Source: a virus
Lineage: Duplodnaviria > Heunggongvirae > Uroviricota > Caudoviricetes
Direction: 5' to 3' (one strand)
DNA length: 10,350 nucleotides
IMG/VR virus record: IMGVR_UViG_2698536559_000019
Made by a program: the position numbers. Below are positions 6,001 through 9,000 of the stretch, in pieces. How positions within the stretch are numbered: position 1 is the stretch's first letter; the number at the start of each line of letters is the position of its first letter.

Positions 6001-9000
6001 GCAGGGGCTACTGAAATCACGAAAGAAGAATATTTTGCCCGCAAAAACGGTACATACTCAGGTTTACAACAAAATACTGGTGCATCTGACACGACCGCAC
6101 AACCAGAGCCGGTAAAAGTTACCGCTGACGAAGTAAAGAAAATTATGCAGGCAGCCAATATCAGCCAGCCTGACGCCAATCAGTTGCTCGCCGCATCACG
6201 TGGTGAATTTGTTGCAGGGATTAGCGACCCGAATGATCCGAAATGGGTGAAGGGGATTGAAACCCGCGATTCAGTGAATCAGAACCAGCAAGAAACGGAA
6301 CAGAACGACCAGAAAGCGGAACAAAACAGCCAAAATGCGTTACAAAACGAGCCAGAAACGAAACAACCTGAACCAGTAGCGCAACAGGAGCCGGAAAAAG
6401 TCTGCACCGCCTGCGGTCAGAGCGGTGGCGGCAACTGCCCTGATTGTGGCGCGGTGATGGGCGACGCAACATACCAGGAAACATTCGATGAAGAGAATCA
6501 GGTTGAAGTTCAGGAAAATGATCCGGAGGAAATGGAAGGCGCTGAACATCCACACAAGGAGAATGCTGGCAGCGCTCAGGACCACGCCAGCGATAATGAA
6601 ACTGGCGAGACGGCAGCTCCCTTAATTGCGGTGAACGGTCATCACATTATCACATCCACCAGCAGAGTGTGGTACCACCTGATGATCGACCTTGAAACAA
6701 TGGGAACCAACACCAATGCGCCCATCGTGGTTATTGGTGCGGTTTTCTTCGACCCACAAACAGGGGAAATCGGGCCAGTATTTTATATCGTTATCAGTCT
6801 GACTGACGCAATGAATACAGGGGCTGTTCCTGACGGTGGAACCATCGAATGGTGGCTGAAGCAGTCCAGTGAAGCCAGAGCTGCCATTTTAACAGACCAG
6901 GTAAAACTGAAGGATGCCCTTTCGCGGTTTCGGGAGTTCATCAACGAATACTCAGATGAAAAATTCGTTCAGGTATGGGGTAATGGTGCAACGTTCGATA
7001 ACTCAATTTTGCGCACCTCATACGAACGCCTGGGCATCCCCTGCCCGTGGCATTACAGCAACGATCGTGATGTACGCACGATCGTTGAGCTGGGGAAAAC
7101 CATAGACTTCAATGCCAGAAGCGTAATTCCATTCGAAGGCGTACCCCACAATGCGCTGGATGACGCCCTTCACCAGGCAAAATACGTTACAGCCACTATT
7201 CAAAAACTGATCCCGAATCAGGCTGATTTTTAATGTTCAACCCTGATCGCCGTCTCCGAATTATATTGGCGGCGGTCATGCTGTAAGGCACGTGACCACA
7301 TGTATGAATTAACTCTATCGCCAGCAGAGATTCAAGAGATCACGAAATACAAGCGATACACAAGACAGCAACACCAGTTAAGACTGCACGGCATCCCATT
7401 TTTAATCGGGCCTAAAAACGAGCCGATAGTTCTACGCTGTGATATTCCACGTGGACTAACAGCAATGTCAAAAGTATCTGAACTGGTTTCTGCTGACCCC
7501 GATTTTGAGGCACTGAATAATGGGAAGACCAAGAAAAGACAAAAAAGATAATGTACTGCCACCGCGCGTTAGATCGAATGGTTACAGTTACGTATGGAAG
7601 CCCAAAGGAAGCACAAGAACGATAAAGCTCGGAAGAGTGCGGGAAACCAGCGTGGCTAAAGTCTGGCAAAATTATGAACTGGAAAAGGCAAAACTCCACG
7701 ACATAATGACCGTAGCTAAATTATGGCACATGTTTATGGACTCCCCTGCATTTACAGAACTGGCCCCCCGAACCCAAAAAGATTATTGGCAACATCAAAG
7801 GGCATTACTGGCGGTATTCGGGAAAATGCTTGCTGATAATGTAAAAATTGAGCAGGTAAGAATTTTCATGGATAAGCGGGGTCTTGAGAGCAAGACCCAG
7901 GCAAACCATGAACTGGCAAGTCTGAGTCGCGTATACGGATGGGGATATGAGCGTGGGTATGTGAAAAATAATCCATGCAAAGGAGTCAGAAAATTCACGC
8001 TTAAAGCCCGTACTGTTTACATCACCGATGAACAGTATGCTGCGATATATGCGGAAGCAATTCCACAGTTACGTATTGCAATGGAGATATCCTATCTCTG
8101 TGCGGCAAGGCTCGGTGATGTGCTCGAGCTGAAATGGCAGGATATTATGGACAAAGGGATTTACATTGAGCAAAACAAGACCGGCACCAAACAAATCAAG
8201 GAATGGTCTCCACGATTACGTACGGCGATCCAGTTAGCCCGAAATGTATCTTCCGGCACATGCGAATATGTGATCAACACAACCAAAGGCGGGAAGGTAA
8301 TAGCCAAGACGCTGAACAACTGGTGGAATCAGGCTAAACGTGCAGCCGAGCAAAAAGCCGGCGTTCCGTTTGGGTGCAACTTCCATGACATAAAAGCCAA
8401 AGGGATTTCAGATTACGAAGGCAGCAGTCGCGACAAACAAATTTTCAGTGGACACAAAACAGAAAATCAGGTGTTGATTTACGATCGTAAAACCAAAATC
8501 ACGCCAACACTGGATTTGCCGCTTGTGGTCAGTAAGTAGGCAATACAGAAAATTTTCTGGCAAAAAGACCTGGTATATTAACTCTGAATAACTCCCTAAC
8601 ATCTTGATTTTTCTTGGTGTTAAGTCTGATTAACTTTTCAGCTACTTTGCGTATTATACTGATTTTTCTTTATTTTTCTTCGGTCTTGAAAACCGGCGAC
8701 CCGAAAGGGTTCCAGAGTTCGAATCTCTGCGCTTCCGCCAAATAATCAAGGGGTTACCAAATGGTAGCCCCTTTGCTTTTTTGGCTCTTGGTATAAACTT
8801 GGTATACCAATTGGTATATTTTTATTCGGATGAGATTATCGGTCATGAGCGGAACCTCAGGTTCCTCGTCTAATGCCGCTCTTGCAACACGTTACGCTGC
8901 CGAGTATTTTTGTAAAACATGGACTGCTCCAGGCCTGAACCAGGCAGAAGGATACAAAGCCACCTCAGATCTGTCGCATCACTATTTTCGTGCAGAAGGC

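Follow-up and report, generated by a model that had tools for sequence, protein, structure and literature searches.

The attachment site (attP) of phage lambda is a system against which the element described here can be set. It carries the arm sites P1, P2 and P'1–3 of the integrase (Int) and the sites H1, H2 and H' of integration host factor (IHF), in the order P1-H1-P2-H2-core-H'-P'1-3; its arm-site word is C/AAGTCACTAT, and lambda needs P2 for excision. We have analyzed a stretch of viral DNA of 10,350 nucleotides (Caudoviricetes; IMG/VR record IMGVR_UViG_2698536559_000019), referred to below as the window. We conclude, with a probability that we put at about 85%, that positions 8540–8822 of the window are the complete attP (P-O-P', where O is the core common to phage and host) of an Evi-like lambdoid phage that integrates in the Escherichia coli gene serT, with an Int arm-site mechanism.

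The host gene and the phage are both familiar. Evi (LR597642.1) is a coliphage isolated from infant feces (PMC10910852). serT is a documented prophage site in Shiga toxin-producing E. coli (STEC), where it holds two or three tandem prophages, according to the parts of two reports that give integration sites and prophage content; those parts do not mention the structure of the att arms (PMC10132054; PMC8767318). The tandem serT prophages of STEC (CC119, O121, O26) resemble the present case in the use of serT, and O26:H11 strain 11368 shares the P-O-P' junction itself. An anticodon-loop sublocation class of tRNA integrases has also been described (bioRxiv 10.1101/2020.11.02.365908).

The core and its flanks

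No tRNA gene was found in the window by ARAGORN. Alignment with K-12 serT shows that 8681–8740 correspond to the final 60 nt of the gene, which is 88 nt long; the 28 nt that make up the 5' part of the gene are replaced by unrelated AT-rich sequence. The identity between phage and host goes 5 nt beyond the CCA, to 8745, which gives a common core O of 65 bp on the plus strand (8681–8745), identical to attB and consisting of serT nucleotides 29–88 plus 5 nt, as seen in alignments with the K-12 attB and with the attL and attR of strain EC12. After AAATAA, K-12 continues with GATAAGGGGTTAGCTAAATGCTAACCCC..., followed by a spacer and yccA, whereas the window continues with TCAAGGGGTTACCAAATGGTAGCCCC..., followed by three copies of the heptamer TGGTATA. 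In base-level alignment the window from 8746 on has no match to the native K-12 serT-yccA spacer, and TGGTATA is absent from the native K-12 serT locus.

The sequence next to the core is a phage-borne intrinsic terminator on the plus strand (8748–8783), with an 11-bp stem followed by a T run (−20.7 kcal/mol, z = −3.8). Despite their likeness, this hairpin and the native K-12 hairpin are different terminators, and it is the hairpin of the window that sits after intact serT in the attL of EC12. Judging from these alignments, it takes the place of the native serT terminator upon integration.

In the window, as in two related phages discussed below (Chris1 and KpF5), phage and host become identical from base 2 of the 5' anticodon-stem strand, and the identity extends past the CCA. 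The core opens with the anticodon stem-loop CGGT-CTTGAAA-ACCGG (8681–8696, plus strand), which is probably the core-binding inverted repeat of Int together with a 7-bp crossover region; this suggests that the two halves of the stem are the core-type sites and that the 7-nt loop is the overlap region, the crossover point being placed accordingly by its position in the stem-loop. Such a core fits the class of integration sites that lie in the anticodon loop of a tRNA gene (10.1101/2020.11.02.365908). The genes serT and tRNA-Ser(CGA), the latter being the target of the two related phages, have the same anticodon stem-loop except for the first base of the anticodon.

Junctions in lysogens and in phage Evi

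The gene order of EC12, which is a single lysogen, shows where each arm belongs. Its first part reads hyaA, intact serT, a terminator of the window type, three repeats, an EspV fragment, an EspF-repeat gene and tail fibers; the remainder comprises the prophage (~45 kb), an exonuclease gene, a DUF4224 gene, int, the P arm, the serT fragment, the native terminator and yccA. The attL of EC12 is thus made of the serT 5' part, O and P', and its attR of P, O and the native flank. It follows from this order that the left arm of the window belongs to the end of the phage that carries int, and the right arm to the tail end, and therefore that the window holds P-O-P', which is attP. The P arm (8540–8680, plus strand) is the int-proximal arm, and is contiguous with int both in the attR of single lysogens and in the attP of Evi.

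Evi contains the P-O-P' junction within its 40,019-bp record, with 99% identity to the window over 8540–9400; overall, the identity is 97.8% across 96% of the window. The Evi record is circularly permuted, with its ends lying between tail genes, and has the same int-attP-EspV'-tail-fiber stretch as the window. Evi differs in that it is not identical to the window, that the stretch of its record which we examined has no attP annotation, and that it is an isolated phage whereas the source of the window is a draft contig of a bacterium.

A symmetric 307-bp probe detected the P-O-P' junction in 79 of 5,426 complete E. coli genomes, and the P' arm alone (8741–8840) is present in 778 of them, always beside prophage genes where examined. 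In O26:H11 11368 the junction lies between two prophages adjoining yccA, and in Z1323CEC0003 there is an ordinary attR at a distance of 45 kb from it. It is the form of free phage DNA or of the join between tandem prophages, and not of a boundary between prophage and chromosome.

On these alignments both arms flanking the core are phage DNA. An earlier note on this DNA, made from the sequence alone, had held that only the 3' 60 nt of tRNA-Ser(UGA) is present and is an att core rather than a tRNA gene, and that, if both arms are derived from phage, the site is attP-like and not a simple prophage–chromosome boundary, which would imply tandem prophages, an unintegrated or circular phage genome, or a permuted phage assembly. 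The first of these points is confirmed by the K-12 alignment and by ARAGORN, and the second is supported by the junctions of EC12, by Evi, and by the divergence of K-12 from 8746. Of the physical forms that the note listed, public sequences contain both tandem arrays and a free phage with this junction.

The array in O26:H11 11368 (loci L006/L007; NC_013361.1, 1.16–1.27 Mb) has peculiarities of its own. It begins at yccA, and the far end of the outer prophage adjoins ymdF/rutG and not serT-hyaA; a rearrangement is implied, and intact serT was not located. The int gene beside the internal attP is frameshifted.

The TGGTATA repeats

The whole window was scanned for TGGTATA. On the plus strand it occurs at 8571–8577 (110 bp before the start of the core), 8789–8795, 8800–8806 and 8812–8818. 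A fifth copy, on the minus strand at 8803–8809, overlaps the middle one of the three downstream copies because that copy is the palindrome TGGTATACCA. No further copy is present in the 10,350 bases. The count of five compares with an expectation of 0.77 ± 0.84, and none of 200 shuffles reached five or more. The inverted copy is probably incidental, as one variant (L088) has it in weakened form and the Chris1 type lacks it.

We compared the repeats with those of related phages, with all offsets referred to the base at which CGGTCT[T/C]GAAAACCGG begins. The window has TGGTATA at −110, +108, +119 and +131. Citrobacter phage Chris1 (ON041214) has the same word at −110, −47 (inverted), +109, +120 and +133, and Klebsiella phage KpF5 (OR327748) has the word TGAGAAAA at −110, −47 (inverted), +108, +118 and +131. 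In E. coli phage 606R7, which was read as an attL only, the word is CTTGGAAT and the offsets are +107, +117 and +130. The word therefore varies between phages, and in Chris1 and KpF5 it is the same on both arms.

Variation among E. coli prophages agrees with this picture. The heptamer at 8571, designated P1, is invariant across 12 distinct E. coli P-arm variants, in which the flanking bases vary. On the other side, the sequence from 8741 is common to different prophages up to about 8822, where it gives way to at least four different downstream contexts (the EspV fragment, a tail-fiber assembly remnant, and others); since the homology stops at about 8822 across unrelated downstream sequences, the conserved block ends right after the third repeat. 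The three copies of this block (8789–8818, plus strand) are designated P'1, P'2 and P'3. A scan of two collections for three spaced copies of TGGTATA gave at least 120 matches in each; those listed were mostly unrelated repeats, and we used only those adjoining a tRNA-Ser gene. Among these listed matches, Citrobacter braakii, Cedecea davisae and IMG/VR loci have serT, a hairpin of different sequence and three copies of TGGTATA with other spacers; Citrobacter, Klebsiella indica and IMG/VR loci have tRNA-Ser(CGA) and then the same TGGTATA triplet, with no similarity in the hairpin.

The combination of one geometry, a word specific to each phage, and the same word on both arms in Chris1 and KpF5 supports Int arm sites, and would not be predicted for a terminator, a promoter or a one-arm excisionase site. 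The TGGTATA repeats are thus very probably integrase arm-type sites. The earlier note had seen the resemblance to the Int arm sites P and P'1–3, for which the offsets in the related phages now provide strong backing, and it was also right in placing one copy on the int side at 8571 and three in tandem at helical spacing on the far side. The far-side copies are spaced by 11 and 12 bp, and the block begins at 8789, or at 8788 only if the preceding T is included.

Several other candidates were set aside. Two degenerate P-arm sites, TTGGTGTT at 8614 and TCAGTATA on the minus strand at 8655, were dropped as they are not conserved in the 12 variants, and a TGGTA within the terminator stem was judged incidental because it is not preserved in relatives. 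A reading of the repeats as promoter elements was rejected: a single weak promoter match was found in 8400–9100, against 1.4 expected, and it lies away from the repeats; furthermore, the homology ends after the third repeat whichever gene comes next. Locus L190 was rejected as a second attP, being a patchwork of a P-type arm, core, P', remnants and a dehydrogenase gene, and was used for offsets only.

Remnants of such sites were seen elsewhere. At 12470–12530 of L190, just upstream of the P-type arm, there is a reverse-complement tRNA 3' fragment (GGATTTGAACC...), a sign of stacked att remnants. An ompW-site prophage of E. coli O55:H7 DEC5D (L089, 1495–1600) contains a degenerate tRNA 3' end, a hairpin and TGGTATA-like repeats amid insertion sequence (IS), EspO and NleF fragments, and looks like a relic P' arm shifted by prophage recombination. 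In IMG/VR locus 2778261065_000020 (L008, 2720–2790), whose Int is 100% identical to that of the window, the right flank is a perfect-palindrome hairpin with a single TGGTATA, followed by unrelated sequence; this may represent a P' arm that has collapsed or that survives as a remnant.

IHF-like sites

Matches to the IHF consensus WATCARNNNNTTR were found between the arm sites and the core, and are regarded as putative IHF sites on the basis of the pattern match. The H1 candidate, AATCAAGATGTTA (8597–8609, minus strand, offset −84), matches exactly, and the changes that occur in it among the E. coli P-arm variants are confined to the N and R positions of the consensus. The H2 candidate, AATCAGTATAATA (8652–8664, minus strand, offset −29), has one mismatch and is a consensus match only. 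The H' candidate, AATCAAGGGGTTA (8744–8756, plus strand, offset +63), is again an exact match. Chris1, KpF5 and L190 each have matches with at most one mismatch at −84 and at −29, and a match with one mismatch is present at +64 in Chris1, KpF5, 606R7 and L264. The K-12 attB has no such match at −84, −29 or +63/64.

The integrase and the xis-like protein

The integrase gene (7520–8539, plus strand) encodes 339 residues and ends 142 bp before the core. The protein is a homologue of lambda Int, and scores 34.9 bits against PF00589, for which the cut-off is 27.1. In phmmer, residues 1–318 align with residues 1–339 of lambda Int (E = 1.2e-16), and the N-terminal part of the alignment pairs MGRPRK...NGYSYVWKP with MGRRRS...NGYYCYRDP of lambda; by this alignment, the protein includes the N-terminal arm-binding region beside the core-binding and catalytic domains. 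Residues R197, K220, H289, H312 and Y321 align with R212, K235, H308, H333 and Y342 of lambda Int.

The gene that overlaps the start of int (7300–7551, plus strand) encodes a xis-like DUF4224 protein of 83 residues (PF13986, E = 8.7e-10). It precedes int in all lysogens seen, and its position makes the protein a candidate excisionase.

The Ints of two IMG/VR loci, L083 and L084, are 76–78% identical to that of the window; the figure is 77–86% in the core-binding and catalytic domains and 55% in the N-terminal 60 residues, which suggests domain mosaicism. Neither the serT core nor TGGTATA was found within 1.1–1.5 kb downstream of int in these two loci, and their att sites were not found.

State of the junction in the source strain and alternative explanations

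Over positions 5020–10350 (5,331 bases) the window is 100% identical to the start of the draft E. coli contig LOGZ01000104.1 (GCA_001607225.1). This contig was identified through its Int protein, which is the same as that of the window, whereas scans of viral, genome and metagenome contigs with exact 34-mers gave no match; a literature search on the accession yielded nothing relevant. Just 210 bp past the end of the window, within a multi-copy tail-fiber segment, this contig contains an ‘NN’ (L339, 5541–5542), after which it picks up again 25 nt short of where the att core ends, with the final 20 nt of serT, and continues through the native terminator to yccA. The resulting fiber-NN-serT junction is found in none of the 5,426 complete genomes. 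We therefore did not adopt it as a natural deletion, and consider that it is most likely a scaffold join, in which case the source strain probably also has an ordinary attR. The path of the contig through P-O-P' may come from tandem copies, from excised circles, or from mis-threading through the 65-bp repeat.

Mis-threading is the alternative that survives best, although we consider it unlikely. It would make the P-O-P' join of the source contig an assembly product, in which the sequence of a single lysogen was led from int and P through the 65-bp repeat into P' rather than to the yccA side, and no such molecule would exist in the cells. In its favor are the position of the window at the start of a draft contig, the nearby NN join with a junction that no complete genome has, and the low number of real junctions of the attP type, which occur in 79 of the 778 complete genomes with the P' arm; on the other hand, reads longer than 65 nt normally resolve a repeat of this length, real P-O-P' junctions are present in closed genomes and in Evi, and spontaneously excised circles or tandem copies would yield the same contig. 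The question moreover bears on the physical state in one strain only, and not on the identity of the sequence.

A second alternative concerns the function of the repeats. Lambda Xis and other recombination directionality factors (RDFs) recognize repeats arranged head to tail with roughly helical spacing, so the tandem copies of TGGTATA might be sites for an excisionase or another phage regulator and the int-side copy a coincidence. A literature search for TGGTATA with integrase and attP returned nothing relevant. However, RDF sites are not known to occupy both arms, whereas in the window and in Chris1 each arm has the same word at fixed offsets, and KpF5 has another word in the same places. 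The set of two plus three arm sites with three IHF-like sites matches the plan of lambda Int, and the Int of the window retains a lambda-like N-terminal domain. We therefore regard this explanation as improbable.

The last alternative, a simple attR boundary in which the repeats and the right flank are native E. coli sequence downstream of serT, which the earlier note had named as the finding that would speak against attP, is refuted: megablast matches of simple lysogens do reach 8780, owing to a partial likeness between the two terminators, phage and native, but the divergence at base level begins at 8746, the native flank leads to yccA without TGGTATA, and the P' arm is limited to 778 of 5,426 genomes and stands beside prophage genes wherever it was examined.

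Returning to the identification of 8540–8822 as a complete attP, a number of points weigh against it. As the window stems from a draft contig that has an NN join close to the end of the window, it is less than certain that this exact P-O-P' molecule exists in the source strain. The arm-site, IHF-site and crossover assignments are drawn from comparison of sequences. An equivalent of the lambda P2 site is lacking: the inverted copy found at −47 in relatives is absent in all 12 E. coli P-arm variants, and 8634–8640 reads CTTTTCA. Finally, K292 of Int, in the sequence FHDIKA (residues 288–293; window 8381–8398), aligns with the catalytic Arg311 of lambda Int. The lysine of FHD[I/L]KA is present in 78 of 80 IMG/VR relatives, and the motif is found in all nine of the more distant full-length relatives aligned (Chris1, KpF5, 606R7, L140, L106, L264, L100, L083 and L084). 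Since the elements are evidently mobile, being present in 778 genomes and in isolated phages, the enzyme works.

Proposed mechanism

The identity of the core and the products of integration can be read directly from the alignments and from the lysogens. Integration gives an attL in which intact serT, with its 3' 60 nt and terminator supplied by the phage, is followed by the three repeats, the effector genes and the tail fibers, and an attR in which int and the P arm are followed by the displaced serT 3' fragment, the native terminator and yccA. We infer the protein steps from the comparisons above. Int would be a heterobivalent tyrosine recombinase of the lambda type, whose N-terminal domain would bind TGGTATA at −110 (P1) and at +108, +119 and +131 (P'1–3), and whose core-binding and catalytic domains would bind the inverted repeat of the anticodon stem, with strand exchange across the 7-nt anticodon loop. 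Bending by IHF at −84, −29 and +63 would fold the arms onto the core, and the DUF4224 protein may steer excision.

Neighboring genes

Type III effector cargo directly adjoins attP. A fragment of an EspV effector gene (8830–9027, plus strand), annotated as partial EspV in Evi, O26 11368 and EC12, lies just past the boundary of attP. It is followed by an intact EspF-repeat type III effector gene (9343–9936, plus strand; 197 residues with three repeats; PF04806, E = 1.9e-74), which has internal self-matches of 97–98% at 9598–9934; an identical protein is encoded between serT and the tail-fiber genes in GCA_012466085.1. The gene for a tail-fiber C-terminal domain (10081–10350, minus strand) was identified by PF06820 in the identical source contig, in agreement with the annotation of Evi, O26 and EC12, and is the beginning of the late/tail region, which converges on attP.

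These arrangements matter for annotation, as a tRNA 3' fragment behind an int gene does not necessarily mark the end of a prophage. The discriminating feature is what follows the 65-bp core, which is either the native terminator with yccA or the phage terminator with three copies of TGGTATA. The analysis defines an attP of about 285 bp (8540–8822) for a family of E. coli prophages that is widespread and carries effector genes.

Comparison with known systems

The site resembles that of lambda in many respects. The homology of the Ints covers the entire protein and so takes in the N-terminal arm-binding region; the arm repeats differ from the core sequence, and one arm has three of them in tandem; the order is P1-H1-(P2)-H2-core-H'-P'1-3, with three IHF-like sites; and a xis-like gene overlaps the start of int. 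It differs from lambda in its arm word, TGGTATA, and in having its core in a tRNA anticodon stem-loop, with 60 nt of tRNA and a replacement terminator, as a result of which its P' sites are some 40 bp more distant from the core than those of lambda. It also differs in having no copy of P2, in having a lysine in place of the second catalytic arginine of Int, and in having int beside the single-repeat arm, whereas lambda int adjoins the three-repeat arm.

Chris1 and KpF5 have homologous Ints, and their repeats and IHF-like sites have matching offsets from an anticodon-stem core; Chris1 also has the same arm word as the window, whereas KpF5 has TGAGAAAA. Both differ from the window in their target, which is tRNA-Ser(CGA) and not serT, and in having an inverted copy of their own arm word at −47, as does L190. 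They differ further in the position of int, which adjoins and reads toward the three-repeat arm in Chris1, KpF5, 606R7, L140, L106, L264 and L100, as in lambda. In the window, in Evi and in the E. coli serT prophages int adjoins the single-repeat arm, so that the attP cassette is inverted relative to int-xis-exo. Because of this inversion, the prophage lies in serT in the opposite orientation, with int far from the intact tRNA.

The inverted cassette, the missing −47 site and the clade-wide lysine raise the possibility, which we put forward tentatively and consider rather doubtful, that the E. coli serT lineage (the window and Evi) builds recombination complexes unlike those of lambda and of its nearest relatives. 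If this were true and mechanistically relevant, a different set of arm sites would be used for excision, and the clade would provide a naturally occurring R-to-K form of the active site of tyrosine recombinases. The words TGGTATA, TGAGAAAA and CTTGGAAT at fixed positions form a candidate arm-site code within one clade of Ints, and offer natural material for studying the evolution of arm specificity or for constructing orthogonal integration tools. The textbook picture is not altered by these findings: the serT site is of a known kind, that of lambda, with minor oddities.

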